In this document: positions 5,146-51,781 of the stretch, in pieces | Layout: every line of letters starts with the position of its first letter | How positions within the stretch are numbered: the stretch's first letter is position 1 | Assembly: GCA_052033715.1 (NCBI GenBank) | Contig: JBPOJJ010000002.1 | Location: forward strand, 1,676-65,675 | Reading direction: 5' to 3' | Length of the DNA stretch: 64,000 nucleotides | Source: Patescibacteria group bacterium | Lineage (GTDB): Bacteria > Patescibacteriota > Minisyncoccia > Phycocordibacterales > CSBR16-119 | Notes under the pieces: model-generated | The model's input: only the letters and a program-made list of their open reading frames with translations | The model's database searches: none | Told to the model about the DNA's origin: nothing | Program-made: the position numbers and the translations under genes

Positions 5146-5147
5146 AC

Positions 5148-6596: not shown

Positions 6597-6627
6597 TGCA
6601 GTATGTGCAATAATATTTTTAATTTAT

Positions 6628-7494: not shown

Positions 7495-7550
7495 ACAAAG
7501 GCTTATTTTTCTTGCAAAAATGCTCCTAAATGGGATAATGACGAGCATCA

Positions 7551-8492: not shown

Positions 8493-8493
8493 T

Positions 8494-9879: not shown

Positions 9880-10850
9880 TAACTACCGAACTATACAAAG
9901 GACAGGGTCTAGGTAACCAATTGTGGTGCTACGTAGTCACTCGAGCTATTGCCAAAAAACGCGGCTTTGATTTTGGTATTGAGTCTCCTCAGAATTTCAA
10001 AGGAGGAGATTTTATGCAACTAGATTTCGGTCAAAAACCGATTCGTATTTTAAATACTTATCATGAACGTTCGATGTTCCACCCCATTAACAATGCTGAC
10101 ATCACCTTGCACGACCCGGGGCTATTGCGTGTTTCCGATAACACAAAAATCCTCGGAGTCATGCAAGACGAAAAATATATTTCTGAATACAAAGACGAAA
10201 TCCGAGAATGGCTTATAATAAAAGACATCGACGTAAGCGATTGCATTGATGAAAATACCTGCGTACTGAATTTTCGCGGGGGCGAATATGCCAGACACCC
10301 AGAAATATACCTTCAGAAAAAATATTGGATTGATGCGATAAACAACATGAAAGAATTATTTCCGGGATTAAAATTTATCGTTATAACCGATGACGTGAAA
10401 GCTGCTCGAGAAATGTTGCCCGAAATATCTGCATATCACTTTGATATCGCCAAAGACTACACTGTAATCTCAAAAGCTAATTATTTAATCCTTTCCAACT
10501 CCAGCTTCGCCTGGTTTCCAGCCTGGTTATCAAAAAATTTAAAATATTGCATCGCGCCAAAATACTGGGGTAGGCACAACATTTCCGACGGTTACTGGAG
10601 CGCAGGCTATAATATAACCAGTGGATGGATGTACCAAGACCGCGATGGAAAATTGCAAAATTACGATTCCTGTCTACAAGAGTTTGAAACATATATAAAA
10701 AATCACTCAAACTACTTTGCCGAAAACAACGCGACGAGTCGACAACGCCCCAGAAACAACATCGTGTTATTTTTAAAGAAAAAAATTGGAGAAATATTGC
10801 CGGAGAGGACAAAAAATTTAATTTTCAAAACCTTTCGAATAAAAAAATAA
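9876..10850 (+). CDS. GT11-family alpha-1,2-fucosyltransferase
   Basis: 324 aa; GT11 motif I variant GQGLGNQLWCY and motif LILSNSSFAWFPAWL (cf. canonical SNSSFSWWAAWL). Confidence 0.7.
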   Translation: MITTELYKGQGLGNQLWCYVVTRAIAKKRGFDFGIESPQNFKGGDFMQLDFGQKPIRILNTYHERSMFHPINNADITLHDPGLLRVSDNTKILGVMQDEKYISEYKDEIREWLIIKDIDVSDCIDENTCVLNFRGGEYARHPEIYLQKKYWIDAINNMKELFPGLKFIVITDDVKAAREMLPEISAYHFDIAKDYTVISKANYLILSNSSFAWFPAWLSKNLKYCIAPKYWGRHNISDGYWSAGYNITSGWMYQDRDGKLQNYDSCLQEFETYIKNHSNYFAENNATSRQRPRNNIVLFLKKKIGEILPERTKNLIFKTFRIKK

Positions 10851-10871
10851 ATTATTAATTAAAATAAAAAT

Positions 10872-11879
10872 ATGGAAACAAAAAAAATATTAATAACGGG
10901 TGTAGCGGGACTATTTGGTTCACATCTGTCTACCTATCTACTGGATAAAGGATACGAAGTGATCGGAATTGACAATTTATCTGGTGGCTACGATGATTTT
11001 GTAGACGAACGATTAAAAAATAGTGCTCGTTTTTACGCCACAGATTTGCTTGATACGGCAACTATAGAAAAAATATTCTCTGAACATAAGCCCGATTTCG
11101 TATATCATTTTGCGGCGTATGCGGCTGAAGGACTTTCTCCGTTTATTCGAAATTTTAATTACAAAAATAATCTGATTTGCTCCGTGAATATTATTAATGC
11201 CTGTATAAAACACAATGTAAAAAAAATCATATTTACTTCTTCTATGGCGGTTTATGGACACGGCGTACCGCCTTTCAAAGAAGATCAAACGCCCACCCCA
11301 GCTGACCCATACGGAATTGCAAAATACGCAGTAGAGATGGATATTATTCAAGCGTGTGAGCAATTCAAACTTAATTATACAATTGTGCGCCCGCACAATG
11401 TTATCGGCACCAGACAAAATATTTGGGATAAATATAGAAATGTAATTGGTATATGGATTCGCGAATCACTTCAAAATGGAACGCTTCTCGTCTTTGGAGA
11501 TGGTGAACAAACGAGAGCCTTTTCGGATATTAAATATTACATGGAGCCTTTTGAAAAATTATTATACAAAGCAGATGGCGAAATTCTAAATCTGGGGGCC
11601 GACAAAGAATTCAAATTAAATATGATTGCAGCGCTGGTAAAAAAGGTAGCAAACGAACTTGGATATAATCCTGATATCAAGCACGCCGAACAACGCAACG
11701 AAGTAAAAGATGCTTACTGTGATCATGCTAAAGCAAAGGACTTACTCGGATTCAGTGATGCAACCGACATAGAACAAACGGTTCGAGAAATGTTCGTTTG
11801 GGCAAAAGCTCAGCCGGCTAGAGAAGTGAAAAGAATGGATTACGAAATTGAAAAAAATATATATAGTTTTTGGAAATAG
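10872..11879 (+). CDS. NAD-dependent epimerase/dehydratase (SDR superfamily, UDP-sugar 4-epimerase/decarboxylase-like)
   Basis: 335 aa; GxxGxxG (TGVAGLFGS), catalytic YxxxK (YGIAKYA). Confidence 0.85.
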   Translation: METKKILITGVAGLFGSHLSTYLLDKGYEVIGIDNLSGGYDDFVDERLKNSARFYATDLLDTATIEKIFSEHKPDFVYHFAAYAAEGLSPFIRNFNYKNNLICSVNIINACIKHNVKKIIFTSSMAVYGHGVPPFKEDQTPTPADPYGIAKYAVEMDIIQACEQFKLNYTIVRPHNVIGTRQNIWDKYRNVIGIWIRESLQNGTLLVFGDGEQTRAFSDIKYYMEPFEKLLYKADGEILNLGADKEFKLNMIAALVKKVANELGYNPDIKHAEQRNEVKDAYCDHAKAKDLLGFSDATDIEQTVREMFVWAKAQPAREVKRMDYEIEKNIYSFWK

Positions 11880-11898
11880 TGAGAATAAGCGAATAGAC

Positions 11899-12834
11899 GA
11901 TATGAAATTAGGAAAAATACTACACAAAATAAGAACGCTACTCCGTAGTTTTAAATACGACCTACTTTCGACGACGCAGGAAAAACTAAGCGAAGAAGAC
12001 ATCTCGACTATCCGAGAGTATCGGAAAAATATAAAGATTTATGATATCTTTACTTACAATGGCGAAGCAGATATCCTGGAAATCCACTTGAACGTCCTTT
12101 ACGAACATGTCGATATGTTCGTAATAATCGAAGCCCCGACAACATTTTCCGGCCAGAAAAAACCTCTCTACTTCGAAGAACAAAAAGAGCGATTCAAACC
12201 ATTTTTAGATAAAATAAAATATTTTGTAATCGATGATTATCCAAATGATCCGGAAATCTGCGCGTTGGCCGATATAAGCATATCGGTACCCAAAGGCGGT
12301 CCAGAACACTGGCGTCGAGAGTTCTACCAGAAAGAAAGTATAAAAAAAGCCCTTACAGAACTGTGCGATGTCGACATTTGCTTCGTCGGCGACGTCGATG
12401 AAATATGGGACCCAAAAACTATTGTTGATTACCGAAAGGACGACATCTTTAAGCTTGAACAGACTGTTTACACTTATTTTCTAAACAATCGCTCAAACCA
12501 ATATTGGGCGGGCACAATTGTCACCAAGTACAAAAACGTAAAAAATTCCTGCTTAAATAACTTACGAAACAAAACAAATACAAAATATACTTATGTGAAG
12601 AACGGTGGCTGGCATTTTACCAATATGGGCGGCATAGAAGAAATACGAAGAAAACTAAATGATTCGTACACCGAAGAAAGTTACAATTCGAAAGAAATCC
12701 AAGACAATCTGACCAAACGATTCGGAAAAAAAGACTATGTGGGCAGGAGTCATAAATATAAGATCGATGAAAGCGCTCTCCCCGACTACGTGATCAGGCA
12801 AAGACAGGCTTACAAAAATCTATTCAAAGAATAG
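11899..12834 (+). CDS. GT17-like glycosyltransferase (beta-1,4-GlcNAc-transferase III-like fold)
   Basis: ~311 aa from the ATG at 11899; the track ORF begins at 11848 with a non-ATG codon inside the upstream gene. Matches the GT17 pattern FTYNGEADILEIHLNVLYEHVDMFVIIEAPTTFSGQKKP. Confidence 0.5.
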   Translation, partial: DMKLGKILHKIRTLLRSFKYDLLSTTQEKLSEEDISTIREYRKNIKIYDIFTYNGEADILEIHLNVLYEHVDMFVIIEAPTTFSGQKKPLYFEEQKERFKPFLDKIKYFVIDDYPNDPEICALADISISVPKGGPEHWRREFYQKESIKKALTELCDVDICFVGDVDEIWDPKTIVDYRKDDIFKLEQTVYTYFLNNRSNQYWAGTIVTKYKNVKNSCLNNLRNKTNTKYTYVKNGGWHFTNMGGIEEIRRKLNDSYTEESYNSKEIQDNLTKRFGKKDYVGRSHKYKIDESALPDYVIRQRQAYKNLFKE

Positions 12835-12860
12835 GTTATTTGTGATAATATAGGCCAATT

Positions 12861-13631
12861 ATGACAAAGTCTTTTATCGGTAGATGCGCGAAAGTGATCC
12901 GTGAAAAAGGGATCGTGGGCTTTATCAAAAAGATAAACGCCAGGCATTTTGATCCTCTCAAAGTAGTTTTTTATCCATATATTAATTTACGAATTTCGTC
13001 CGTAATAAAACAAAAATTCACGGCCGAAAAAGCAGTTAATTTTGTTTTTCATCGCTTCGGAGCATTTTTGAAACCCTACCAATTTAAGTCAGAAATTCTG
13101 GCGCTCGCAAAAACGGTTGAAGCTCTTCGTCCAAAGATCGTGCTCGAGGTGGGAACTTCGACTGGCGGAACTTTCTTCATCTGGTCGAGACTGTCGACCC
13201 CTGACGCGCATCTGGTTAGTGTCGACTTGCCCGGCGGAGAAAATGACTGGGCTTTTCCTCGTTGGAAAGAACCTTTCTATAAAAAATTCGCTTTGCCTCC
13301 GCAAAAAATTAATCTCTTGCGTGGGGATTCCCAGACACAAGAAATGCTTGAAAAAGTAAAAAATATCTTGGTCGGAGAAAAAGTGGATCTGCTTTTCATC
13401 GACGCCGATCATAGTTACGAGGGCGTCAAGAAAGATTACGAGCTTTATTCCCCGCTCATGAGAAGCGGAGGCGTCATTGCTTTCCACGACATCGTCAAAT
13501 TCCCCGACTACACCCAGGTTAAGGTAAAAGACTTTTGGGACGAAGTAAAAGCTGGCAAGAAATTCGAGGAATACATAGAAGATCCGGATCAAAAATGGGG
13601 AGGCATCGGCGTAATCTTCGTCGGAGAATAA
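12861..13631 (+). CDS. class I SAM-dependent methyltransferase (CmcI/Methyltransf_24-like O-methyltransferase)
   Basis: 256 aa; IVLEVGTSTGG SAM motif I; DLLFIDADH...GGVIAFHD. Confidence 0.65.
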   Translation: MTKSFIGRCAKVIREKGIVGFIKKINARHFDPLKVVFYPYINLRISSVIKQKFTAEKAVNFVFHRFGAFLKPYQFKSEILALAKTVEALRPKIVLEVGTSTGGTFFIWSRLSTPDAHLVSVDLPGGENDWAFPRWKEPFYKKFALPPQKINLLRGDSQTQEMLEKVKNILVGEKVDLLFIDADHSYEGVKKDYELYSPLMRSGGVIAFHDIVKFPDYTQVKVKDFWDEVKAGKKFEEYIEDPDQKWGGIGVIFVGE

Positions 13632-13639
13632 TCAAAAAG

Positions 13640-14332
13640 ATGAAAAAAATCGAGAAAAATTTCTTGGTGATCTCCAGTTACAATAACGATGTAAGCTGGG
13701 TGCCGACGTACACGGAAAACTATGTCATTTATGACCGGAGCGATATAGAAGTGCCTCACGAAGGGGTCGATCCTAAAAAACTAATAAAGTCTCCGAACGT
13801 TGGCTACAATTTATACGACTACTTCACTTTCATAATCGATAATTACGAAAACCTCCCCGACTGCATTATTTTCGCCAAAGGCAACATCTTCCCTCGCCAC
13901 CTGAGACAAGAATATTTTGATTCGGTCATGAATAATGATTTTTTCACACCCTTAATAGATCGAAAAATGCACGGGAGGTCTTCTTGGCCGATTTCTTTTT
14001 TTGATAAAAAAGATGGGCTTTTCCACGAGTTGAATACAAGTTGGTACACAAAATATTTCAAAACAAAATATTTCAAAAAATATCTTGACTTTTTGAGGTT
14101 CTGCTTTAAAAATCAAGTCTGGCAAATATATACTCGGTTCGCCCCAGGAGCAAATTATATAGTTACCAAGGAACATATTCTAAGATTACCGAAAGTTTTT
14201 TATGAGAATCTTCGAACTTTTGTTTCTCACACAACCCTACCGGGCGAAGCGCATATCGTCGAGCGCGCACTATATGATATATGGAATAAAGATTATAAAA
14301 TATCAGAAAAAATGTTAACAAAAATAAAATGA
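13640..14332 (+). CDS. hypothetical protein (glycan-locus associated)
   Basis: 230 aa from ATG at 13640 preceded by GGAGA RBS; the track ORF start at 13535 is an upstream extension overlapping the methyltransferase. Confidence 0.45.
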   Translation: MKKIEKNFLVISSYNNDVSWVPTYTENYVIYDRSDIEVPHEGVDPKKLIKSPNVGYNLYDYFTFIIDNYENLPDCIIFAKGNIFPRHLRQEYFDSVMNNDFFTPLIDRKMHGRSSWPISFFDKKDGLFHELNTSWYTKYFKTKYFKKYLDFLRFCFKNQVWQIYTRFAPGANYIVTKEHILRLPKVFYENLRTFVSHTTLPGEAHIVERALYDIWNKDYKISEKMLTKIK

Positions 14333-14952
14333 CAAGAATTGAAATCATAAACGCCCTTATAAAGAAAAACGGTTACCAAAGTTATTTGGAAATCGGCGTC
14401 AATACTCCTGCTCAGCCCGGCTACAGTCATACCAGTATTGAAATTGCCACCAAGCACGGAGTTGACCCGGCGGTCGATACGACTTTCCGAATGACTTCTG
14501 ATGAATTTTTCGTGCAAAATACGAATACTTACGACATAATTTTTGTCGATGGATTACACATCTTCGATCAAGCGCATCGAGACATCGTAAACAGTCTGAA
14601 ATTTTTAAATAACAACGGCACGATCGTCGTCCACGACTGTTACCCACGCCGAGAGGTTACTCAACGGCCCGTTCGCGCCTCGAGCGTTTGGCACGGAGAT
14701 GTCTGGAAAGCTATTCTTAAGCTTCGTACAGAAAATCCCGACATAGAGATCTATACAATCAATGCCGACGAAGGTTGCGCCATCATCCGGAAAGGTCACC
14801 AAGAACTCTTCAGGCCAAAATGGAATGGAGATTTTTATACGTACGACTTTTTCAAGAAAAACAAAAAAGAGGTTTTGAATCTCATAAGTGTCAAAGAATT
14901 CAAGAAAAAAATAGGCCTTCCTCTGGCTTGGTACGAAAAAATTTTCGGCTAA
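14329..14952 (+). CDS. class I SAM-dependent methyltransferase (Methyltransf_24-like)
   Basis: 207 aa; YLEIGVNTPAQ; YDIIFVDGLH...GTIVVHD; 4-nt overlap with upstream gene. Confidence 0.6.
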   Translation: MTRIEIINALIKKNGYQSYLEIGVNTPAQPGYSHTSIEIATKHGVDPAVDTTFRMTSDEFFVQNTNTYDIIFVDGLHIFDQAHRDIVNSLKFLNNNGTIVVHDCYPRREVTQRPVRASSVWHGDVWKAILKLRTENPDIEIYTINADEGCAIIRKGHQELFRPKWNGDFYTYDFFKKNKKEVLNLISVKEFKKKIGLPLAWYEKIFG

Positions 14953-15767
14953 ATTTTCTTGTGAATTCTCAATAGTAATCCCTTTAGACTGGGAGGCACA
15001 ATGCTAAAAATCGGTAGAAAAATTATTTTTGCCCAGCCCAACAGAAGAGCCGACATATAATTTGGATAAAAAGCCTTATTCTCCTTGGCAAGACGCATAT
15101 TCTGCCTGAGTCTTAGAATTTTATTCTGAGAATTTACTCCTTTTGTATGGAAAAGATATTTAACAGAATACTCTGGCAAGTTGGCGAATTTGCCTACCCG
15201 ACCGAGTCGCAACCAAAGATCGTGATCTTCCAGAATCTTTTCGTGTAAATAACCTCCGATTTCTTTGACTATTTTCGTTCTGAATAGGACGCTCGTGTGA
15301 ATAAAACAATTCATCCGAAGGATCTTTCTTCTTATTTCCGAATCAGTTTTTGGTAATAAATATCGAGTTATTTCTTCGCCATCCTCGTCAACAACAATCG
15401 CACCCGTACCAACCAATAAATAATCCGAATGTTTATCTAGTAAAGAAACTTGTTTTTTCAACTTATCCATATCTATCCATTCGTCGTCGGCATCCAGCCT
15501 AGCGATGTATTCTCCTTTCGCCAAACCAAGTCCAATATTTAAAGTTTCGGCCAGACCCAAATTTTTGCCGTTTTTTAAATAAATAATTCTTTGATCTTGT
15601 GGTACAAGTGATGAAACTATTTGTTCTGTGTTGTCAGTAGAGCAATCGTTTATGACAAGTAATTCGAAGTCGTTAAAGGACTGTCCCAGAGCACTTCGAA
15701 TTGATTTCTCAATCCATTTGTTACCATTATATACTGGTAACAATATTGTAATTTTCGGATAATTCAT
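14949..15767 (-). CDS. family 2 glycosyltransferase
   Basis: 272 aa; ITILLPVYNG...FELLVINDCSTDNT; DxD (RLDADDEW). Confidence 0.8.
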   Translation of the reverse strand: MNYPKITILLPVYNGNKWIEKSIRSALGQSFNDFELLVINDCSTDNTEQIVSSLVPQDQRIIYLKNGKNLGLAETLNIGLGLAKGEYIARLDADDEWIDMDKLKKQVSLLDKHSDYLLVGTGAIVVDEDGEEITRYLLPKTDSEIRRKILRMNCFIHTSVLFRTKIVKEIGGYLHEKILEDHDLWLRLGRVGKFANLPEYSVKYLFHTKGVNSQNKILRLRQNMRLAKENKAFYPNYMSALLLGWAKIIFLPIFSIVPPSLKGLLLRIHKKI

Positions 15768-15769
15768 GA

Positions 15770-16648
15770 CTATATTTTAATCCAATTTTGTGGAATTCTG
15801 TGACTCGTATCAATAGACTTATCACCGAACCAAGCCTTTGGCGCTATAACAATTTTATCAGAATTTTCGGCAAGCCAAGCTGCCCACCAAGAAAAGCTAC
15901 TGTTAGCGATGATGAAATGTTTACACGATTTCATGAGCTCGAATTGTCCCGACGCACGTTCTCCAGAACATTCTTCGCCAACGAAAGTTGTTGGCCGTCC
16001 AAAAGAAATATTTTCTTTGCACCAATTTATGTCATCAGAAAAGACGTAGATGTGTTCGATGTTCGTTTTCTCAGTCAAAAGATTTACGGCCTGAGTGTAG
16101 TAGTCTTTGGAAACAACATCATGGAACTTGTTACCAACATAATCACCTCGCCGCACATGCACACATACGGAATTCTGGCTTTCAATTTCCTTTTTCAAAG
16201 ATTTTATATTTTCTGGAAGTAGATTCTTTAAAAAGAAGTCTTTTCGAATAGTGTCAGCAATCAATTCAAAGTATTTATAACTCTGCCAATAACCATCAAT
16301 GTAGGCATTCGGACCAAGATCAAGGACTTCTGGATTAAATTTGAAACCCCTTTCTCTGCCCCGCCCACCAAACAAATTTCTACGTAACTTGTTTAAAATT
16401 GCGCCAAAAAATCCACCCCCGCAAGACCTATGCCAAAATGGCAATGACCGCTGATCAATGATTCTGGCTTCGACACCAAACAAATCAAGATCGTAGCTAC
16501 GAAAAGTAAATCCCTTTCTTGGGGTTCGATCTAGCAAATCGTAAATGTCGAGCCCGAGCGTAGTTTTGTTCTTAATAGCCAGAGCGCGACCCAGAGCATA
16601 CTGAAACATCTGATTACCCATTCCACCAGAAAGCCGTACGATAATCAT
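15770..16648 (-). CDS. GT11-family alpha-1,2-fucosyltransferase
   Basis: 292 aa; canonical GT11 motif I SGGMGNQMFQYA and motif IIANSSFSWWAAWL. Confidence 0.85.
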   Translation of the reverse strand: MIIVRLSGGMGNQMFQYALGRALAIKNKTTLGLDIYDLLDRTPRKGFTFRSYDLDLFGVEARIIDQRSLPFWHRSCGGGFFGAILNKLRRNLFGGRGRERGFKFNPEVLDLGPNAYIDGYWQSYKYFELIADTIRKDFFLKNLLPENIKSLKKEIESQNSVCVHVRRGDYVGNKFHDVVSKDYYTQAVNLLTEKTNIEHIYVFSDDINWCKENISFGRPTTFVGEECSGERASGQFELMKSCKHFIIANSSFSWWAAWLAENSDKIVIAPKAWFGDKSIDTSHRIPQNWIKI

Positions 16649-30716: not shown

Positions 30717-31193
30717 TTAGAAATTGTCAGCGTAGACGAGAGCCTGATCAATCTTGGTATATGAGAAGATTTCATCCTCGGAGAAGAATCTGGCAACTTC
30801 TTTTGCACCGTTTTCCACAGAATCAGATGCGTGAACGACGTTTGATTGGATAGACATGGCCAAATCACCCCTTATTGTTCCCGCTGGGGCTTCGTAGGCC
30901 TTGGTTGGACCAACAATAATGCGTACTGCGTCCACTGCGCCAATACCCGAAAGCGCCATCACGACGACTGGAGAAGATTTCATAAATGATTTGATACCAG
31001 CAAAGAAAGGTTTATCTTTGATGTGGGAGTAGTGATCCTCGAGCAAAACGTCTTCGAGAGTAAGCATCTTTAGGCCATTGATTTTTAAGCCCTTCTTCTC
31101 GAATCGGCCAATAATCTCGCCAACCAAATTTCTCTGGATGGCGTCAGGCTTCATAATGATAAGGACTTTTTCGTTTTTCGGATGAGTGTTCAT
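30717..31193 (-). CDS. ndk: nucleoside diphosphate kinase
   Basis: 158 aa from ATG at 31193 (MNTHPKNEKVLIIMKPDA...); active-site NVVHASDS; the track ORF extension to 31415 runs into a structured element and is rejected. Confidence 0.85.
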   Translation of the reverse strand: MNTHPKNEKVLIIMKPDAIQRNLVGEIIGRFEKKGLKINGLKMLTLEDVLLEDHYSHIKDKPFFAGIKSFMKSSPVVVMALSGIGAVDAVRIIVGPTKAYEAPAGTIRGDLAMSIQSNVVHASDSVENGAKEVARFFSEDEIFSYTKIDQALVYADNF

Positions 31194-31211
31194 ATTTCCT
31201 AGTGAGGAGCA

Positions 31212-31231
31212 TTTGCGAGCTTGCTCGCAAA
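31212..31231. promoter_or_regulatory. perfect palindrome TTTGCGAGC-TT-GCTCGCAAA in ndk 5' region (putative operator)
   Basis: 9-bp perfect inverted repeat 19-38 nt upstream of ndk start. Confidence 0.3.
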
Positions 31232-31332
31232 ATCTCCGAACGACGGAAATATACGAGACGAGCGGAGCGAGGGCTCTTATATTATTCTTAAATTTTAATA
31301 AGCGTAGTTTAGCAGACTTCCGTTCCCCCTTC

Positions 31333-31490
31333 AAGCGGAGCAAAACATGCCAGAAAAAGTTTTCAAACGCACCCGCAGTCCTGACGCCAAAGCGGAAGGA
31401 CGTGAGGGGGCGCACCTCTATTTCGACGGGTGTTACTTAGGAGGAATAGGCGCGCTTTTTGAAAACTTTTTCTGGCATGTTTTGCGGAGC
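31333..31490. repeat. structured intergenic element, copy A: conserved core flanked by ~26-bp closing inverted repeat
   Basis: AAGCGGAGC + stem AAAACATGCCAGAAAAAGTTTTCAAA ... core GAAGGACGTGAGGGGGCGCACCTCTATTTC..GTGTTACTTAGGAGGAATAGGCGCGC ... stem TTTGAAAACTTTTCTGGCATGTTTT + GCGGAGC; abuts stop codon of upstream ATPase gene. Confidence 0.6.
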
Positions 31491-34225
31491 TATATTTTCA
31501 TGAACTTATCCATCACTTCCTTCTCCACTTCATCTCTCGGCCTGCCGAATTTAAGGAATGACAATTCTTTGAGCGAGTCAACGATTTCCGGATTACCTGG
31601 TGGCAAGTCTTGAGTTCGAATGTTAAATGGTTTGACTGGTACACCATCAACAAGCATCGAAATGTAGGCGTTTCGATTATCGAGCTTCAATATGTCTTGG
31701 ACCGTAAACGTCGGTTCGAGACGTTTGACCAAAACCTCGGCATCTTCGGAGCTGATGCGAAAAATTCCCATTGAACCGACGTTTCCGAGAACCGCGTTTC
31801 TAATGTCATCAGAGAGCTGTGACAAGTATTGATGTGCAACATTAAGTGAGAGTTTGTATTTGCGAGCTTCGGAGAGGATTGATGAAATTGAGGGTGTGGT
31901 GAAGTTCTGGAACTCGTCAATATAGAGATAAAACGGTGGCAAACTTCCGGCTCCGTCAGCACGCGACAGTGCGGCCATCTGGATTTTGCCGACAAGTATG
32001 AGACCGAGTAGGTTCGCATTGATATCACCGAGCCTTCCCTTTGACAGGTTCACCAAGAGAATTTTCTTATTATCAATAATCTCGCGGAAATTGAAACTCG
32101 ATTTCTCCTGCGCAATAATCGGACGCATGATTTCGTTTGAGATAAACGTGTCGAATTTGGACGTGATGTATGGCACAAAGTTCTCAAGACCCTGCTCACC
32201 CGTCGTCGCCTCAGCCGTTTTCCAAAACTGGGTGATGATTGGGTTCGTACAATGAGACAATTTCATATCGCGGAATTTCTTGTCCGAAAGCACGCGACCA
32301 ATTTCAAGCACGGTGTTTCCTGATTCTGGATGGGCCATAACCAATCCAGCGGAATTTTTAAAATATTGTTCGAATAGCGGTCCGCCGGCCGTCTTCATGT
32401 CAAAGAGCTGATTAAAAATGCCTAGCAGTTCGTTAATAACGAGAGTTTTCTGTTCTGGACGCTCTGGGTCAAACTCAAGCATATTGAGCGCCATCGGCCG
32501 AGAGGTCGAAGCTGGATCAAAGTAGATAACGTCATCAATTCGATGTTTTGGAATATAAGAGAGAATTTTCTGAATATCAGTTCCGTGCGGATCGATATAA
32601 CAAACCCCATCACCTCGCTCAATATCCTGACGAATCATATTCATGAGAATTCCCGTCTTACCCGTTCCTGTTTGACCGATAACGTAAAAATGTCGCATAC
32701 GATCAATTTCTTTCAAGAACACGTCGGTATCTACACCACGATAAGAGTTGATACCAATCTGAATACCGTCAGTCCCCATATTGATAGGCACTGCCCCTAC
32801 ACCGGCTTTGGACTCACGAAGTTCTGGTGAGCCAGTCGTACCAACTGGGAAATGCACAAGCGTAGAAAGCTCTTTGAAATTTAGCGGCATAGCGTCGCGC
32901 TCGTTTGGCATACGGAAAGAAAATGCATGAAAAAATTGCGTCGTGTCTTTTTCTTGGACCTTGTGAAATCGAACACTGTTAGAGTTCGCCTTGGTAAATT
33001 GGGAAAAAGACGACTCAATGTTCGATATTATCTCGGCGGTACGGCCAGCGGATGGCGATGACGCAATGATGCGAATGTTTGCCAAGACGATGGTTGATTT
33101 GATTTTTTCAGAAATATTTTCGACGGCTCGATCATCGACGTCTTTGCCCTCATCGGACTTTTCCCTCTCCGCGACTTTCTGACTTTTGAAAAGTGATGTA
33201 CCGAAATTCTTGAACTCTTGTTTTATATCGTGAAAATCATCAAGCGCGTGTTTCAATTTTTCTCCATGTTTTACTTTGTCCAAGATTTTGGAGAATTTTT
33301 TGATATACGTGTCGCCAGCCGGCATAATGACGAACTGTAAAGCGGCTCCTTCGGTTGTCTTGTCGAGCTTGGAAAAGGCGTTCAAAATCGCCCCCATTGG
33401 ATCGTGGTCAAATTCGTCGTGAGTCTTGAGCGGAAAGACATCATGATCAGAAAGTGTGGCATAAGCACCCGAGGTTACGCCCTTGTCGATAAAAATATTG
33501 TAGTCGTTGGTGACTTCGGTCACACGAGCGTTTTTATAAAAAGAAAGAATTTGTTTTTCTAGCAAGCTCTTGCGATCCTTTGGAATTGAAACGTAGAGGA
33601 TTATTTCCGGTGAATCATGTGAGACAGAAATTTCAATAGTGAAATATTGCTTGAAACGATTTTGCTCACCTGACGCAATCGTCTGCATGCCGGCCAAAAA
33701 CTGCTCCATGGCCGTGAGGAAATCTTTAAAACTTTTACTCTCACCTTCGAGTGGCGGAAGCGTCACTTCGAAAAGAGCGAGGTTCAATGACTTCCATTCC
33801 GGCGTAGTTTCTTTGAGACCCGGAATATTGCCAGAGGTGTGCAAGAACTGAACAAGAAATCGGTGAAAATCATCCTCGACGTGAGGATTTTTCAAGCGCG
33901 ACACAATTTCCATGGTGTTTTTGATTCCGTGTTCGAGCAACATTCCATACAACTCCTCGATCTGGCTATCGTGCTCTTCGGGCTTGAGCGCGAGAGCTAC
34001 CGCTTCGGTTTGGGTATCTTCCATGCGGAAATTATCGTGCAAGACTTCGGCCGAGTCAGCTTTCTTGTACGCAGACAATGTCTCATGTGTCGCCTCTTCG
34101 CGAGACTTCTCGATATTTTGGCTAGCCAGAGATTGCTCATGCTTGGCGACTTGTTCTCTCAAATACGAAAGCTCCTCTTCGGGAGTTTTAAACTTCGGAG
34201 CTTCTCTCGAACCACCAAATTCCAT
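31490..34225 (-). CDS. VirB4/TraC-like (T4SS-type) P-loop ATPase, 911 aa, with ~500-aa uncharacterised N-terminal region
   Basis: Walker A HFYVIGQTGTGKTG followed by ...GVCYIDPHGT; Walker B YLYIDEFQNF; layout (long N-domain then ATPase) resembles VirB4/CagE/TrbE; no other T4SS genes nearby. Confidence 0.55.
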   Translation of the reverse strand: MEFGGSREAPKFKTPEEELSYLREQVAKHEQSLASQNIEKSREEATHETLSAYKKADSAEVLHDNFRMEDTQTEAVALALKPEEHDSQIEELYGMLLEHGIKNTMEIVSRLKNPHVEDDFHRFLVQFLHTSGNIPGLKETTPEWKSLNLALFEVTLPPLEGESKSFKDFLTAMEQFLAGMQTIASGEQNRFKQYFTIEISVSHDSPEIILYVSIPKDRKSLLEKQILSFYKNARVTEVTNDYNIFIDKGVTSGAYATLSDHDVFPLKTHDEFDHDPMGAILNAFSKLDKTTEGAALQFVIMPAGDTYIKKFSKILDKVKHGEKLKHALDDFHDIKQEFKNFGTSLFKSQKVAEREKSDEGKDVDDRAVENISEKIKSTIVLANIRIIASSPSAGRTAEIISNIESSFSQFTKANSNSVRFHKVQEKDTTQFFHAFSFRMPNERDAMPLNFKELSTLVHFPVGTTGSPELRESKAGVGAVPINMGTDGIQIGINSYRGVDTDVFLKEIDRMRHFYVIGQTGTGKTGILMNMIRQDIERGDGVCYIDPHGTDIQKILSYIPKHRIDDVIYFDPASTSRPMALNMLEFDPERPEQKTLVINELLGIFNQLFDMKTAGGPLFEQYFKNSAGLVMAHPESGNTVLEIGRVLSDKKFRDMKLSHCTNPIITQFWKTAEATTGEQGLENFVPYITSKFDTFISNEIMRPIIAQEKSSFNFREIIDNKKILLVNLSKGRLGDINANLLGLILVGKIQMAALSRADGAGSLPPFYLYIDEFQNFTTPSISSILSEARKYKLSLNVAHQYLSQLSDDIRNAVLGNVGSMGIFRISSEDAEVLVKRLEPTFTVQDILKLDNRNAYISMLVDGVPVKPFNIRTQDLPPGNPEIVDSLKELSFLKFGRPRDEVEKEVMDKFMKI

Positions 34226-34234
34226 AACAATATT

Positions 34235-34295
34235 GTATCATGCACCGAAAAAAGTATCTGTAGAAATGAAAGCGCCCCCGCTGTTGGCGGGGGCA
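34235..34295 (-). terminator. putative terminator after pyrC (GCCCCCGC-TGTT-GCGGGGGC) with downstream T-tract
   Basis: 8-bp GC stem; T-run ~20 nt downstream on minus strand; followed by TACAAT-like -10 for the ATPase gene. Confidence 0.4.
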
Positions 34296-34314
34296 CTCAT
34301 CTGCAAAGGGTTCT

Positions 34315-35487
34315 TCAGTCCATTCGATGGGCTGGATCTTCAACATCTTCTGGAATGAGGAGTTCGGGCCTCAAAGCCTCCGGGATGGTGGGCTTCCAAG
34401 ACAGCCTGCTACCTGCCATGAGCGGTGTGATGCCACCATAAGATGGTGGAATTTCCCAACCTTCTTCGCCCGCGTATTCAAGCTCGAACGTGTCATCGTT
34501 CGGCTCCATTCCGTAGATACGTGCACCGTTCGTGACAGTGAAAGCTTCGAATGCTGGATGGTCAAGCCTCATCATCTGGTCGAAAATATAGACCATCAAT
34601 GGCCCCATCACTGGCGAACTGAAAACGCCAGGGCATCCGCAACTGCAGAGCTTTGTCGGATCGAGGTGTGGCGCCGAATCGGGTCCAAGATGGAGCTTGT
34701 TGTATCCTAGTTCATCGGCACGAAGCACCGCTGTAAGCAATGCTTGTTGATCAACGAATGTCTGCACCGGTGGACGACAGTGATGAAATGGGTTGATGCC
34801 AGGATTTCCACCAGCGACCGGCCACTCCAAGACATCGTTACGTGTCATCCAAAGATGCTGCGGGGTAATGCCGCCTGTAATGCACTCCGGCATCTTCAAG
34901 ACCATTTCTAGTGTGCTCGCGGTAGAAATGTGCTCGATGTTGAAACGCACGCCCGGGAATTTCTCAACAAGTCCCAAGAATGCCTCTTCCATGAACACGC
35001 CTTCGCGTGCGTATGTATCGATCTTCTCGCCCGGCTGTTCGCCGTGCAAACAGATGATGAGCTCGCGAGATGCTGCTTTTTCGATCGCAGAGTACATTTC
35101 TTGGAATGAATTCCAAGCACTTCCCTTTTCGTTCGAATTGGTCACACCCTCGGGATAGATCTTGACCGAGCGACCACCGAGGCTTTGAAACGCGGCAAGC
35201 TCTAGTAGATGAGTGTCTTTCACCAGCTTCATCGCAACACTATGCCTCATCTGTGGTGCCCTTCTGTGAAGTTCGCGCCGGTAATTCTGGGAATCAGTCG
35301 CACTGAGAATTGGCGGAGCCGTATTCGGCATCCACACCTCGTGTTGCGCCCACCAAGCAGTGGTCGTTACGGCGGTATGGAAGCGTGGTACAGGCTTTTC
35401 GTTGCCAATCACGTTGCGAGCGTGCCCGTGGGTCTGGAAGAACTTACGGAATTTTCGGCGTTCGCCGATTTGCGGTCGTGTGTTCAT
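34315..35487 (-). CDS. pyrC: dihydroorotase (E. coli PyrC-type, class II)
   Basis: ~390 aa from internal ATG (MNTRPQ...). PyrC motifs WMPNTAPP, ITPQHLWMTRNDV, GPDSAPH, SCGCPGVF, FTVTNGARIYG. ATGA overlap with pyrD stop. GC-rich (~55%). Confidence 0.85.
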   Translation of the reverse strand: MNTRPQIGERRKFRKFFQTHGHARNVIGNEKPVPRFHTAVTTTAWWAQHEVWMPNTAPPILSATDSQNYRRELHRRAPQMRHSVAMKLVKDTHLLELAAFQSLGGRSVKIYPEGVTNSNEKGSAWNSFQEMYSAIEKAASRELIICLHGEQPGEKIDTYAREGVFMEEAFLGLVEKFPGVRFNIEHISTASTLEMVLKMPECITGGITPQHLWMTRNDVLEWPVAGGNPGINPFHHCRPPVQTFVDQQALLTAVLRADELGYNKLHLGPDSAPHLDPTKLCSCGCPGVFSSPVMGPLMVYIFDQMMRLDHPAFEAFTVTNGARIYGMEPNDDTFELEYAGEEGWEIPPSYGGITPLMAGSRLSWKPTIPEALRPELLIPEDVEDPAHRMD

Positions 35488-36446
35488 GCGAAGTTTGGGT
35501 GTTGGTTGATGGTTTTGATGAGTTCTTTCATGCGCCATGGACGCGTGATAGCAGCGGTACCGAGTGAAATGCCTTTGACGCATTTCAATTCAGCAAGCTG
35601 TTCAATATCCTGGACGGATGTAACTCCGCCCCCGGCAATGATCGGCTTTTTGAAGCCGCTATACTCAGCATGTTGAAGCCACTGCAGTGTCGTTCCGAAG
35701 ATTGGTTGTCCTGACAGCCCGCCGCCGCCATACTTTTTGAGAGGCGAGCCGTTTGGGAAATAGGTATGTACACCAGCTTCGGAAATGGCGCCGAATGGAA
35801 GAGTGTTGAAGCAAACAAGTCCAGCGCAAGCCGGATGTTCTTCGATCGCCTTGGCATCTTCAACGGACGTAAGCTGGTTGATCTTGACCAAGATCGGAAC
35901 ATCCAGGCTCGCAAGAACATCCAGAAGCGGCTTCGCAGCTTTTGCGGTCTTCGCTGTATCATGACCAGTATTAGGACAAGACACGTTCAGCTGTACCGCG
36001 AATTTCGTCATAAACCTGGTCTTGTTGACCAGATCTACGAATCCTCGCGCCTGAAATTCCTGCGCAATGGGATCGTCGCCGATCGCCATGAACGAGAGCA
36101 TGAACGGATCACGTCTACGCTGCCAGTGACCTTGTGCAATTAGGTGCGCAACTCCAGGTCCGCTAAGTCCAACCGAGTTCAGAACAAGGTTGTTAACGAA
36201 ATCGACGTGGACCGAATCCGGAAACATCTTCTTCAGGCCGATTTGATTCTCGGTCAATTCAGTATTCCCCTTGTTAGGATTGAATGTCGTCGTCTTGGCA
36301 CAGAACGTCATACCATCGAATGTAAATCCAGGCATGAGTTTGTAGAACGGATGATGGCGGTACTCGGTACCAGCATCACCCCCGAAGAAGCCTTGAACGC
36401 CAGAGGCGCCCACGGCAGGACTGAAGTGGATTCCTCCGATATTCAT
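35484..36446 (-). CDS. pyrD: dihydroorotate dehydrogenase family protein (class 1 DHOD/DHPD-like TIM barrel)
   Basis: 320 aa; NSVGLSGPG, LNVSCPNTGH, GGGGLSGQPI, IIAGGGVTSVQD motifs matching class-1 DHOD; GC-rich. Confidence 0.7.
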   Translation of the reverse strand: MNIGGIHFSPAVGASGVQGFFGGDAGTEYRHHPFYKLMPGFTFDGMTFCAKTTTFNPNKGNTELTENQIGLKKMFPDSVHVDFVNNLVLNSVGLSGPGVAHLIAQGHWQRRRDPFMLSFMAIGDDPIAQEFQARGFVDLVNKTRFMTKFAVQLNVSCPNTGHDTAKTAKAAKPLLDVLASLDVPILVKINQLTSVEDAKAIEEHPACAGLVCFNTLPFGAISEAGVHTYFPNGSPLKKYGGGGLSGQPIFGTTLQWLQHAEYSGFKKPIIAGGGVTSVQDIEQLAELKCVKGISLGTAAITRPWRMKELIKTINQHPNFA

Positions 36447-48391: not shown

Positions 48392-51300
48392 TTATTTTTC
48401 TATTCTTATTTCTTCTCCGCCAAATTTTATTTCCTTTATACCTGCGACTTTTTGGAGTTCGGATTCGAAGCCAGAAATGATTTCTTTGGAAGATTCTGGA
48501 ATTGTAAGAGTGACTAGATCACTTGGCGACAAATCATTATCTTTTCGAAGACCTTGGACACTGCGGAGAAATTCTCGGAAATCGCCCTCCTTCTTTAATT
48601 CGTCAGTGATGTTTGTGTCGAGTGTAATTTCTGATCCAGAAATTATTTCTTTGACGTTTACTTCATCTTTGAGAAGTTCCAAATATTCCCCATCTAACTT
48701 TTGATTTATCGTAAGTGTTGCAAGCGGCTGGCGGACTTTGATATTAGCCTTCTGACGTGCTTCAAGTCCAGCGGTTACAAGTTCACGAGTCACTTTCATC
48801 GATTCTAAAACTTTTTCATCTATCTTTTTCACTTCGGGCCACGACTCGAGATGAACCGATTCTTTCTCGCCACCCACTTTCTGGTATAAATCTTCGGCGA
48901 AAAATGGCGTCATTGGCGCCATAAATTTCGCGAGTTCTGTAAATACGTGTTTGGTTGTCGCGAGAGCGAATTGTTTATCATCTTCGTCATCGCCCTTGAA
49001 GCGATCACGCGAACGGCGGATGTACCACGTCGATAAATCATTTACAAAATCACGAAGCGCACGAGCCGGCTCAAATATTTTGAACTCATCAAACTTCTCG
49101 GTTCCCTCTCTAACCATCTCGGCAAGTTTGGCCAAGATCCAAGCATCGAGAACGTTCGGACTTTTGTTCGGCTCGAAACCAGATTTCATCTCGCCAACAT
49201 ATGTTTCATAGAATTTATGACAATTTAAAATAAGTGTGAATATTTTGCCATGAAGTTCAGCCACCGTTTTCTCATCGAAGTTTTTCGAATCTCCCGGCTG
49301 GTTCACCGAATACATCCACAGACGCAATGTGTCGACGCCGTATTTGTCCATCATCTCCCATGGGTTCACGATGTTGCCAATTGATTTCGACATTTTCTTG
49401 CCCTGCGCGTCGAGAATGTGTCCGAGACAAATACAATTTTTATATGACGCGCCCTTGCCCATCAGTACGCCAACCGCAAGAAGCGTATAGAACCATCCAC
49501 GAGTTTGATCGACGGCTTCGGAGATGAAATCCGCCGGATAGCCCGGACCATCGACATATTCTTTGTTTTCAAACGGATAATGATGTTGTGCAAATGGCAT
49601 CGAGCCTGAGTCAAACCAGACATCCATCACGTCTTTGACTCGACGATATTCCACACCGTCTTTTTCGAGGACAACATCGTCGATGAATGGACGATGGAGA
49701 TCAAGTTCTTTTTTAGTCTCGTTGTTTACATAAACCGTATCGACTTCTCCATTATCAATACCGTGAAAAACTCGGATCGCTTCTTCATTGGACAATCCTC
49801 GCAATAATTTCAAAGCGATTTCATTTGTTCCTTGGTGAGCAAAACAAAGAATGGTCTTGCCGGAGTATTTTTCCAAGACATCATCAAGAAAATCCTGTAC
49901 TCGAGCTTCTAGATCCGCCCAACTTTCTCCGTCACCTCCACGCTTCATAACAAAACGATCTTCGGTGGACATATTCTTATAAGCATTTCGCGAAGCTTTT
50001 ATTGCCGGATCATGCTGTGATTTTTCCTCCCAATCACCGCTTTTTATCTCACCCAGACGCTCGTCGAGCACCATCTCAAATCCTCTTGATTTAGTAAACG
50101 CCTCGGCAGTTTCGCGCGCCCTCAAAATAGGCGAAGAGAAAATCACATCCGGCGTAAGATTATTCATCTTTTCAGCGCTCTGTTTGGCTTGTTCTCTGCC
50201 AAGGTCAGTCAAGTGATGAAGCTCAAGCGCGCTCGAAGACATTTCGAGAACATTGTGTTCAGCTTGGCCATGACGGACAAAAAGTATTTTTGTAAGTTTT
50301 TTCTTGGAATATTTTCGAAGTGTCTCAATCGAATCAACAATGATTTTCTCTCTCTTGTCTTCGGTCTGCCAGATTGGAAGCGGTGTACCCCAATAACGCT
50401 CACGAGAAATCGCCCAGTCTTTGATCTCGCGAAGCCACTCACCAAATCGGCCTTCTTTGATGTGAGATGGCTCCCAGTTTATTTTCTCATTCTGTTTTAC
50501 GAGTTCATCGCGAAGTTCCGACATCCGGATATACCAAGAATCCCGCGCGTAATAAATAAGCGGAGTTTTACATCTCCAGCAATGCGGATATGTGTGTTCG
50601 TAATTTTTCTTCCCAAAGAATAATCCCCTTTTGGTCAGATCGTTGATGATGTCTACCGCGACAAGTGGCTTCCCTGCCTCGTCTTTCTCCATAACAAATC
50701 GGCCAGCGAGAAATTCCACTCCCGGCAAGAATTTACCATCAAGTCCGACAGTGTGAATCTTTGGAAGTCCCTCACGTGTCGCCAACTCAAAGTCGTCCGC
50801 TCCATACATCGGCGCGATGTGTACGATTCCCGTTCCATCTTCGGTTGTGACGAAATCTCCAGCATAGACTTTGAAACTAGCTTCTAGCTTTTCGCTTTTA
50901 GCTTCTAGTGGATAAAGAGGTTCGTACTCCATGCCTATCATCTCACTACCTTTGTGTTCTGCAATAATTTCATAAGGCTCCGTGATGATCGAAAGCATCG
51001 CTTTGGCGACAACCAATATTTCCTCGCCGACTTTCGCTTCGACATACTCGACATCTTTTCCAACAGCTAATGCGACGTTGCCTGGAAGCGTCCATGGTGT
51101 TGTCGTCCAGGCGACGAAATATGCCTTGTCGAATCCTTTGATTGGAAACTTCGCAAAAATCGATAGGTCTTTGACATCTTCATACCCCTGCGCGAGTTCG
51201 TGTGACGACAAAGTTGTCCCGCAACGCGCGCACCATGGCAAGACTTTGAAGTCGGCGTACAATAAATTTTTCTTGTTCACTTCTGAAACGATATTCCAAA

Positions 51301-51781
51301 GTGATTCGATGTAATTTGTATTGAAAGTAAAATACGCATTTTTTTTGTCCACCCAATAACCGATACGATCCGTAAAATCTTCCCAATCTTTGATGTAATC
51401 GAAAACGCTTTGCTTACACTCGGCGTTGAATTTCTCGATGCCGTATTCTTCGATATCCTTCTTCGACTTTAGTCCGAGCTTCTTCTCAATCTGAAGTTCA
51501 ACTGGAAGTCCGTGCGTATCCCAGCCACCCTGGCGGGCGACGTGAAAGCCCTGCATCGTTTTGTAGCGAGGTATGACGTCCTTGAAAGCCCGAGCTTCGA
51601 GATGGTGAAGCGCTGGCTTGGCGTTAGCCGTCGGTGGGCCTTCGAAGAAGACGAATTCGCCTTTTGGGGATTCTTTCGAGAGAGATTTATCAAATATTTT
51701 GTTTTCTGCCCAGAATTTAAGAACCGCTTCTTCTTTTAGAGCGGCGTCAGACTTCTTGGGCACTCCCTGGTCCTTTTCCAT
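48392..51781 (-). CDS. ileS: isoleucyl-tRNA synthetase (type 2/eukaryote-like) carrying an internal histidine-phosphatase (PGAM-like) domain insertion
   Basis: 1129 aa; HIGH-region (PALHHLEARAF), CP1/editing region, WGTPLPIW, DVWFDSGSMPF, KMSKSIGN, anticodon-binding C-terminus; ~195-aa insert with RHG...R...E...H phosphatase motifs. Confidence 0.9.
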   Translation of the reverse strand: MEKDQGVPKKSDAALKEEAVLKFWAENKIFDKSLSKESPKGEFVFFEGPPTANAKPALHHLEARAFKDVIPRYKTMQGFHVARQGGWDTHGLPVELQIEKKLGLKSKKDIEEYGIEKFNAECKQSVFDYIKDWEDFTDRIGYWVDKKNAYFTFNTNYIESLWNIVSEVNKKNLLYADFKVLPWCARCGTTLSSHELAQGYEDVKDLSIFAKFPIKGFDKAYFVAWTTTPWTLPGNVALAVGKDVEYVEAKVGEEILVVAKAMLSIITEPYEIIAEHKGSEMIGMEYEPLYPLEAKSEKLEASFKVYAGDFVTTEDGTGIVHIAPMYGADDFELATREGLPKIHTVGLDGKFLPGVEFLAGRFVMEKDEAGKPLVAVDIINDLTKRGLFFGKKNYEHTYPHCWRCKTPLIYYARDSWYIRMSELRDELVKQNEKINWEPSHIKEGRFGEWLREIKDWAISRERYWGTPLPIWQTEDKREKIIVDSIETLRKYSKKKLTKILFVRHGQAEHNVLEMSSSALELHHLTDLGREQAKQSAEKMNNLTPDVIFSSPILRARETAEAFTKSRGFEMVLDERLGEIKSGDWEEKSQHDPAIKASRNAYKNMSTEDRFVMKRGGDGESWADLEARVQDFLDDVLEKYSGKTILCFAHQGTNEIALKLLRGLSNEEAIRVFHGIDNGEVDTVYVNNETKKELDLHRPFIDDVVLEKDGVEYRRVKDVMDVWFDSGSMPFAQHHYPFENKEYVDGPGYPADFISEAVDQTRGWFYTLLAVGVLMGKGASYKNCICLGHILDAQGKKMSKSIGNIVNPWEMMDKYGVDTLRLWMYSVNQPGDSKNFDEKTVAELHGKIFTLILNCHKFYETYVGEMKSGFEPNKSPNVLDAWILAKLAEMVREGTEKFDEFKIFEPARALRDFVNDLSTWYIRRSRDRFKGDDEDDKQFALATTKHVFTELAKFMAPMTPFFAEDLYQKVGGEKESVHLESWPEVKKIDEKVLESMKVTRELVTAGLEARQKANIKVRQPLATLTINQKLDGEYLELLKDEVNVKEIISGSEITLDTNITDELKKEGDFREFLRSVQGLRKDNDLSPSDLVTLTIPESSKEIISGFESELQKVAGIKEIKFGGEEIRIEK
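49712..50293 (-). other. inserted histidine phosphatase superfamily (branch 1, phosphoglycerate-mutase-like) domain within ileS (approx. residues 497-690)
   Basis: KILFVRHGQAEHN (RHG catalytic His), SSPILRARETAE (Arg), LDERLGEIKSGDWE (Glu), ILCFAHQGTNEIALKLL (second His); located between WGTPLPIWQTEDKREKII and ELDLHRPFIDD...DVWFDSG of the synthetase. Confidence 0.65.

Follow-up and report, generated by a model that had tools for sequence, protein, structure and literature searches.

The window analysed here is a 64,000-nucleotide stretch of contig JBPOJJ010000002.1 (assembly GCA_052033715.1, positions 1,676 to 65,675 of the forward strand) from a Patescibacteria group bacterium, and it carries on its minus strand, between positions 31490 and 34225, a gene for a 911-amino-acid (aa) P-loop ATPase. 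This protein appears, from its sequence, to be a relative of the VirD4-type coupling proteins of type IV secretion systems (T4SSs) and not of VirB4/TraC, with a VirD4-like motor preceded by a domain of predicted VirB4-like fold and by a fused small adaptor. The function we favour, with about an even chance of being right, is that of a cytoplasmic ATPase of the VirD4/TrwB lineage serving as the coupling or translocation motor of a relaxase-less T4SS-like apparatus encoded elsewhere.

The open reading frame (ORF) runs uninterrupted for 911 codons from an ATG start, as established by an ORF and translation check. It appears to be a real gene and not a chance reading frame, since a word-indexed search scored more than 1,220 homologues and all 120 of those listed covered 98 to 100% of the query, at 56 to 91% identity. 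When 1.84 billion representatives of clusters at 50% identity were searched exhaustively with HMMER, 20,721 of them matched at E ≤ 1e-3 and 5,062 at E ≤ 1e-30; the gene's full-length relatives are all Patescibacteria. A look-up of the exact protein sequence in public assemblies gave no record. The Walker A and B motifs named in the original prediction, which gave no strand, are present in the minus-strand frame, with RHFYVIGQTGTGKTGILMNMI at aa 511, GDGVCYIDPHGT at aa 538 and LPPFYLYIDEFQNF at aa 762. Across 72 diverse homologues of 29 to 80% identity (alignment A1), residues G516, K522, D769, E770, E785, K788 and Q798 are invariant, and R787, a putative arginine finger, is nearly so; this invariance of the catalytic residues suggests that the motor is catalytically intact. 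Hydropathy (Kyte-Doolittle, 19 residues) peaks at 1.52 within the ATPase core and is nowhere transmembrane-like. The parts of the gene are as follows.

31490 to 34225, minus strand: coding sequence of 911 aa, comprising a fused adaptor, DUF8128 (predicted VirB4 N-terminal-domain-like fold) and an ATPase resembling type IV coupling proteins (T4CPs), without a transmembrane helix (from the ORF, full-length homologues, hydropathy and an AlphaFold2 model).
33839 to 34186, minus strand: N-terminal helical adaptor, aa 14-129, with the motif KGI...P...D.FH..L (from the fam4 hidden Markov model (HMM), E = 3.7e-12, and alignment A3, both described below).
32846 to 33790, minus strand: DUF8128, aa 146-460, alpha/beta, with a predicted VirB4 N-terminal-domain fold and the end motif LN.EEL..L.HFP at aa 448-460.
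31601 to 32773, minus strand: RecA-like P-loop ATPase domain of the VirB4/VirD4/HerA branch, aa 485-875.
32654 to 32677, minus strand: Walker A, GQTGTGKT, aa 517-524 (from the sequence).
32117 to 32455, minus strand: insertion made up of helices only, aa 591-703, separating Walker A from Walker B; by its position, a candidate counterpart of the T4CP all-alpha domain.
31913 to 31930, minus strand: Walker B, YLYIDE, aa 766-771, followed by a conserved SEARKY motif at aa 785-790 (from the sequence).
31502 to 31594, minus strand: C-terminal helix pair, aa 878-908, conserved in the family (from the secondary structure of the model; the A1 consensus reaches the C-terminus).

All 120 listed homologues carry PF26449, which is DUF8128, over their N-terminal half in precomputed annotation, and DUF8128 was assigned to the 911-aa protein through them; the N-terminal half itself had no match in the Pfam copy scanned, a copy without the PF26449 model. 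The homologues' source labels read 'type IV secretion system DNA-binding domain-containing protein' or 'TraM recognition domain-containing protein', and the proteins so labelled come from Paceibacteria, Nomurabacteria, Minisyncoccia and other Patescibacteria. Homology extends over the full length of both domains, which on sequence grounds places the protein in the family of DUF8128 plus T4CP-like ATPases (PF26449 with PF12696/PF10412). The earlier description of the N-terminal half as uncharacterised still stands, as a literature search for 'DUF8128' turned up no paper. The nucleotide-binding domain is recognised by T4CP models, namely TraG-D_C at aa 764-823 (24.7 bits against a gathering score of 22) and TrwB_AAD_bind at aa 510-549 (21.9 bits against 20.5); DUF87 stayed under its gathering score (17.9 against 23.2). 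NCBIfam gave partial matches only, far under cutoff, to TraD, VirD4-like, TrbC and CedD models. Furthermore, the A1 profile found TrwB (2.7e-7), DotL (1.9e-6) and HerA (9e-4) among PDB sequences and no VirB4 chain at E ≤ 1; it is because TrwB and DotL are recovered and VirB4 is not that the protein appears to be a VirD4-type relative. The superfamily proposed at the outset, a T4SS-type ATPase of the FtsK/HerA branch, was correct.

The AlphaFold2 model built on alignment A1 (pLDDT 88.1, pTM 0.75) adds a second component. In it, DUF8128 is predicted to adopt the fold of the VirB4 N-terminal domain and to precede the ATPase, and the top Foldseek matches of the full-length model are TrwK/VirB4. 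The VirB4 N-terminal domain docks its ATPase onto the inner-membrane platform. Taken together with the profile results, the modelled structure suggests a family in which a docking domain of VirB4 type is joined to a motor of VirD4 type. The VirB4-like domain order noticed in the original prediction thus survives at the level of the fold, but no VirB4 sequence similarity was detectable: the DUF8128 profile recovered designed repeat proteins only from PDB sequences, and hhalign of the N-domain to a VirB4 gave a probability of 0.2%.

These observations bear on the possibility that the gene encodes a VirB4 assembly ATPase (TraC/CagE-type) of a dispersed T4SS, which we consider very improbable. The two-domain order and the Foldseek result are what would be expected of such a protein. 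However, the CagE_TrbE_VirB, AAA_10 and P-loop_TraG models gave no Pfam match at E ≤ 0.01, hhalign of the family alignment to a bona fide AAA_10 VirB4 reached a probability of 2.7% over the full length, against 100% to the protein in the coupling-protein slot of the same plasmid, and no sequence-level relationship was detected with VirB4/TrwK of R388 or with the VirB4 of Thermoanaerobacter pseudethanolicus. The VirB4/TraC/CagE-like assignment made earlier by sequence has therefore been replaced by the VirD4-type one. Additionally, Patescibacteria own a separate, monophyletic VirB4, usually beside TrsD/VirB3 and near dnaA (PMC12102498, including its Table S3), whereas the 911-aa gene has no adjacent VirB3 or TrsD gene and is flanked by map, ndk and an inserted pyrD/pyrC pair.

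The homologues fall cleanly into two classes, which, together with the adaptor fusion described next, are new in this analysis. Soluble-class proteins, to which the 911-aa protein belongs, are ~900-970 aa long, align from query residue ~3-15 and have an N-terminus that is not hydrophobic. Membrane-class proteins are ~790-870 aa long, align from query residue ~144 on and begin with a strongly hydrophobic segment (19-residue hydropathy 1.8-3.7) that is absent from all soluble-class relatives. A membrane-anchored paralogue matches T4SS-DNA_transf and TrwB_AAD_bind over ~300 residues, above the gathering score. Directly upstream of membrane-class genes, on the same strand, lies a conserved hydrophilic gene of ~140 aa (for example at 9328-9753 in locus L056 and 9602-9997 in locus L009, among loci L052-L090 and the like). 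These small genes form one cluster, fam4, at 14 of the 33 membrane-class loci, and a second, unlinked cluster, fam25, at 6 more. An HMM built from the small upstream proteins of fam4 matches the N-terminal extension in almost every soluble-class protein, and it matches no membrane-class protein; on this basis, the 911-aa protein appears to be a fusion of the small partner with a DUF8128-ATPase that has also lost its membrane helix. The joint alignment (A3) has invariant residues G100, D118 and H121, within a G...D..H..L motif, and the adaptor/fam4 protein had no match in Pfam, NCBIfam or the PDB. Matching the two homologue lists by the lengths of their longest contigs gave no shared contig; published counts of one or two t4cp1-type matches per Paceibacteria genome, plus an FtsK-like t4cp2 (Table S3 of PMC12102498), are compatible with their co-occurrence or with its absence.

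Downstream of some divergent soluble-class genes we observed a protein of ~900 aa, directly adjacent, that has a coiled coil at its N-terminus and a membrane segment rich in glycine (5863-8721 in locus L035, 9869-12721 in L062 and 12751-15399 in L069). Those of L035 and L062 share 27% identity over 370 aa, and the large proteins in this position are mostly unrelated to one another. Such a protein could be a membrane partner.

Outside Patescibacteria, the family extends to mobile elements. Distant homologues (21-28% identity over query aa ~190-905) were found by tblastn in 626 plasmid and 58 phage records, the plasmids being those of Bacillus, Streptomyces, haloarchaea, Sulfolobus and Thermococcus. 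Like the 911-aa protein, these ATPases, among them a B. subtilis plasmid 'DUF87 domain-containing protein' and a Thermococcus nautili plasmid ATPase, are homologous over both the DUF8128 and ATPase domains, and the two that were checked (the B. subtilis plasmid protein and SPO1 gp27.4) have no transmembrane helix. They differ in their low identity, in having no fam4-type adaptor and in being borne on plasmids or phages rather than in the core chromosome. For the B. subtilis plasmid protein (WP_345805471.1), hhalign against A1 gave a probability of 100% (E = 6.7e-55, 654 columns, both domains). On its 27.5-kb plasmid, the gene is the first of an operon and lies directly upstream of a Replic_Relax relaxase, after which come TcpC, TcpE, a VirB4-like ATPase of the AAA_10 family, a large transfer protein and a lytic transglycosylase/peptidase. 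The plasmid's annotation names no further coupling protein. In ICEBs1/Tcp-type elements, the first gene is the coupling protein (ConQ/TcpA), an order that we take the B. subtilis plasmid operon to mirror. The family thus appears to include proteins that occupy the coupling-protein slot beside a relaxase, with a putative coupling function.

Homologues are common on plasmids of Bacillus, Streptomyces and archaea and on phages of Bacillus, which raises the question of whether the 911-aa gene is what is left of an integrated conjugative element or prophage in decay, an idea that the acquired-looking gene pair next to it might also encourage. We regard this as scarcely credible. The ORF is unbroken over its full length and its catalytic residues are invariant, its GC content (0.448) equals that of the window (0.439), and no integrase, relaxase or repeats were noted nearby. 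Synteny is, moreover, kept in relatives down to ~45% identity, and a mobile-element remnant is effectively ruled out by GC content, intactness and conservation, and gene order taken together.

The family alignment was used to retrieve 80 related genome loci, 44 of them soluble-class and 33 membrane-class, and this synteny was examined there. A 78%-identical relative has the order rpsF-ssb-rpsR-adk-map-[gene]-(110 aa)-ndk-DUF2238-RNase J-LOG-recA-ftsK, which matches the window save for pyrD/pyrC. Relatives of 57-59% identity place the gene after the spc cluster, as S8-L6-L18-S5-L15-secY-adk-(pyrH)-map-[gene]-ndk-...-RNase J, and the order ribosomal protein genes-secY-adk-map-[gene]-ndk-(DUF2238)-RNase J-LOG recurs in 4 annotated relatives. 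Some of these markers stand in the same order in ~25 of the 44 soluble-class loci, and most of them, on both sides, in ~15. The contexts of ~17 more divergent soluble-class loci (43-49% identity) are variable, with neither the spc/ndk synteny nor another conserved context. The ATPase gene consequently looks like a vertically inherited core chromosomal gene, located between map and ndk, in its Paceibacteria-type lineage of Patescibacteria; given the conserved synteny, it is a core gene and no orphan. The original prediction had called it a solitary gene beside horizontally acquired ones; the pyrD/pyrC pair does look acquired, as an insertion next to the core gene.

The same evidence weighs on a reading of the protein as a defence ATPase of the HerA, MADS mad8 or Dnd DptH type. 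PADLOC reported mad8 (E = 2.4e-15) over aa 506-836, that is, the motor only, and there are weak matches to HerA (NCBIfam, 13.8 bits against a cutoff of 970) and to DUF87. As mad8 and DptH are themselves T4CP-like ATPases, the match reflects the shared motor only. Unlike patchy, island-borne defence genes, the gene holds a syntenic housekeeping position in its own clade, its family is near-universal in the phylum (PMC12102498), and neither in the window nor in the annotated relatives does it have a methyltransferase, nuclease, Sir2 or another defence partner next to it. We judge a defence function most unlikely and set it aside on distribution and context; a best match to a non-T4SS defence ATPase, an outcome named beforehand as one that would overturn the T4SS assignment, did not occur.

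How a VirD4-type protein of this kind would work can be sketched as follows; its oligomeric state, docking partners, substrate and direction of transport are inferred. The protein would assemble into a ring, as TrwB, VirB4 and HerA do, and is presumably hexameric. Through its VirB4-like N-domain and fused adaptor, it may dock onto membrane partners of a conjugation-derived, T4SS-like apparatus, where ATP hydrolysis would drive the recruitment or threading of a macromolecular substrate, either DNA or protein. The protein differs from the VirD4/TrwB/TraG T4CPs in lacking their N-terminal transmembrane helices, in having two further parts ahead of the motor, namely DUF8128 (~315 aa) and the fused adaptor (~120 aa), and in its gene being chromosomal, core and syntenic, with no link to a relaxase or T4SS. 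A coupling-protein ATPase that is likewise without transmembrane helices is TraJ of pIP501, for which anchoring by a small membrane protein has been proposed (PMC12857230); we liken the two by description. Its partner TraI is a two-helix membrane protein, whereas fam4 is hydrophilic and, in the 911-aa protein, fused to the ATPase.

Several observations weigh against a coupling role. The absence of adjacent T4SS partners noted at the outset was confirmed: no VirB4, VirB6, pilin or relaxase family was found by Pfam among ~50 ORFs of the window, although not all small ORFs were scanned. Homologues in related genomes did not cluster with T4SS genes either: in none of the 80 related loci does a gene for a T4SS component, relaxase or pilin lie next to the homologue, and such linkage was seen only for the distant homologue of the B. 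subtilis plasmid. As the 911-aa protein has no membrane anchor, docking is purely hypothetical. Both of its Pfam matches are short and barely over threshold, and VirB4, VirD4, HerA and DptH are not separable by structure alone. Full-length homologues also occur in large Bacillus phages without any T4SS, namely SPO1 gp27.4 (locus L008, 5767-8487), phage G gp156 and phrog_5156 (match at E = 8.4e-86), which means that the family is not tied to T4SSs. In Southlakia epibionticum, the T4CP homologue is non-essential for epibiotic growth while the T4SS genes are essential, and the authors state that 'exaptation cannot be ruled out' (PMC12102498). Wang et al. likewise described the essential T4SS cluster as having no recognisable coupling protein and no recognisable relaxase.

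The main rival reading is that the protein is an exapted, Ced-like motor for nucleic-acid import or processing that is independent of export, with imported DNA feeding nucleotide salvage where nucleotides cannot be made. We regard this as possible, although we would not expect it to be the answer. CedD of Sulfolobales consists of a transmembrane segment, a VirB4-N-terminal-domain-like domain and a HerA/VirB4-like ATPase, and belongs to a chromosomal, relaxase-less system in which it is essential for DNA import only (PMC11868833). Its layout is that of the membrane-anchored paralogues, and CedB and CedD resemble the 911-aa gene in being chromosomal and relaxase-less and in their domain order. 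Relaxases are, furthermore, nearly absent from Patescibacteria, with 109 homologues in 103 of 3,035 genomes (PMC12102498). The conserved neighbours (adk, ndk, pyrH, cytidylate kinase, a NUDIX/HD hydrolase, RNase J, a LOG-type nucleosidase, TatD and SSB) act on nucleotides or nucleic acids, and RmuC and DnaX recur near membrane-class genes. In one Wolfebacteria contig (L009, 13268-22379), a membrane-anchored paralogue has, ~1 kb away, a comFC-like gene and a complete cluster for a type IV pilus, with pilM, pilO, pilB, pilT, pilC, a pilin and a prepilin peptidase.

However, adk-map-ndk is a generic housekeeping context, and the pilus/comFC neighbourhood recurs in none of the 33 other membrane-class loci, one of which has a single PilM 9 kb away; searched by tblastn with marker proteins, the 80 loci showed no linkage to T4SS, type IV pilus, comFC or VirB4 genes save for that PilM. 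The CedD model (NF053655) matches weakly and in part, at aa 488-557, with 24.7 bits against a cutoff of 600, so that the protein does not qualify as its equivalog. Neither CedB nor CedD has the whole VirB4 N-terminal domain, each having a part of it, and the 911-aa protein is bacterial and soluble rather than membrane-embedded. Deletion of comEC left the viability of S. epibionticum unaffected, which means that DNA uptake is no essential nucleotide source there. A broader proposal, which we think rather unlikely, is that the DUF8128 ATPases form a lineage of their own, the third next to VirB4 and VirD4 and not recognised before, in which docking domain is of VirB4 type and the motor of VirD4 type. 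They would have become core housekeeping machines in Patescibacteria, and the soluble, adaptor-fused form would be a Ced-like motor that takes up or processes nucleic acid from the host, to be used in nucleotide salvage, and is not concerned with export coupling.

The coupling or translocation motor remains our preferred reading, and it is of interest since Patescibacteria are host-dependent and account for a large share of bacterial diversity, and a T4SS-like apparatus is essential in the one genetically tractable species, in whose cluster neither a relaxase nor a recognised coupling protein is found. Quiñonero-Coronel et al. counted 5,713 T4CP homologues, spread over 2,918 of 3,035 Patescibacteria genomes; no more than 148 of these homologues lie near virB4 (PMC12102498). 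The 911-aa protein belongs to this near-universal set, which published surveys have counted but not dissected; it is an ordinary member of a very large family, and its architecture is a distinct variant of the coupling protein. The domain combination, the two forms, the core position of the soluble form and the plasmid slot turn a vague annotation into testable hypotheses, and the architecture bears on how the VirB4 and VirD4 ATPases diverged.

The genes and signals immediately around the ATPase gene, where ndk and a pyrC-like gene had been reported as neighbours and were indeed found, are as follows.

30717 to 31415, minus strand: ndk, downstream of the ATPase gene.
34226 to 34245, minus strand: extended -10-like box TGATACAAT, ending 6 nt before the ATPase ATG and right after the hairpin (consensus match).
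34270 to 34298, minus strand: terminator-like hairpin between the pyrC stop and the ATPase start, with a 12-bp stem and 9 G-C pairs (pattern scan, consensus match).
34315 to 35583, minus strand: pyrC-like dihydroorotase gene, upstream of the ATPase gene (TIGR00856, E = 5.5e-55, below the model cutoff).
34315 to 36446, minus strand: pyrD-like and pyrC-like genes, an insertion that separates map from the ATPase gene (NCBIfam/Pfam matches, GC content).

The pyrD/pyrC pair has a GC content of 0.51-0.53 against 0.44 for the window, and it is absent from the 78%-identical relative and not present between map and the homologue in loci L001 and L002. Both genes score under curated family cutoffs. Genes for making pyrimidines de novo would not be expected in a Patescibacterium. 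The pair appears to be a local, acquired-looking insertion specific to this genome. The candidate -10-like box, at its spacing, would imply a leaderless transcript or one with a very short leader. The ndk ORF is listed at 232 aa with the NDK domain from aa 82, and its relatives measure 158-194 aa; its true start is probably an internal codon.

The rest of the window holds tRNA synthetases, recA, ftsK, thyA, glyA and a polysaccharide cluster. An isoleucyl-tRNA synthetase-like ORF of 1,129 aa (48392-51781, minus strand) contains a His_Phos_1 domain at aa 499-689 (E = 2.6e-37), inserted between the two halves of the class I synthetase core. The polysaccharide-biosynthesis cluster is large (3865-16648); among its products are a sugar transferase, a flippase, an epimerase, methyltransferases, several glycosyltransferases, some of them of GT11 and GT17 types, and a TPR-repeat protein resembling O-antigen ligases.

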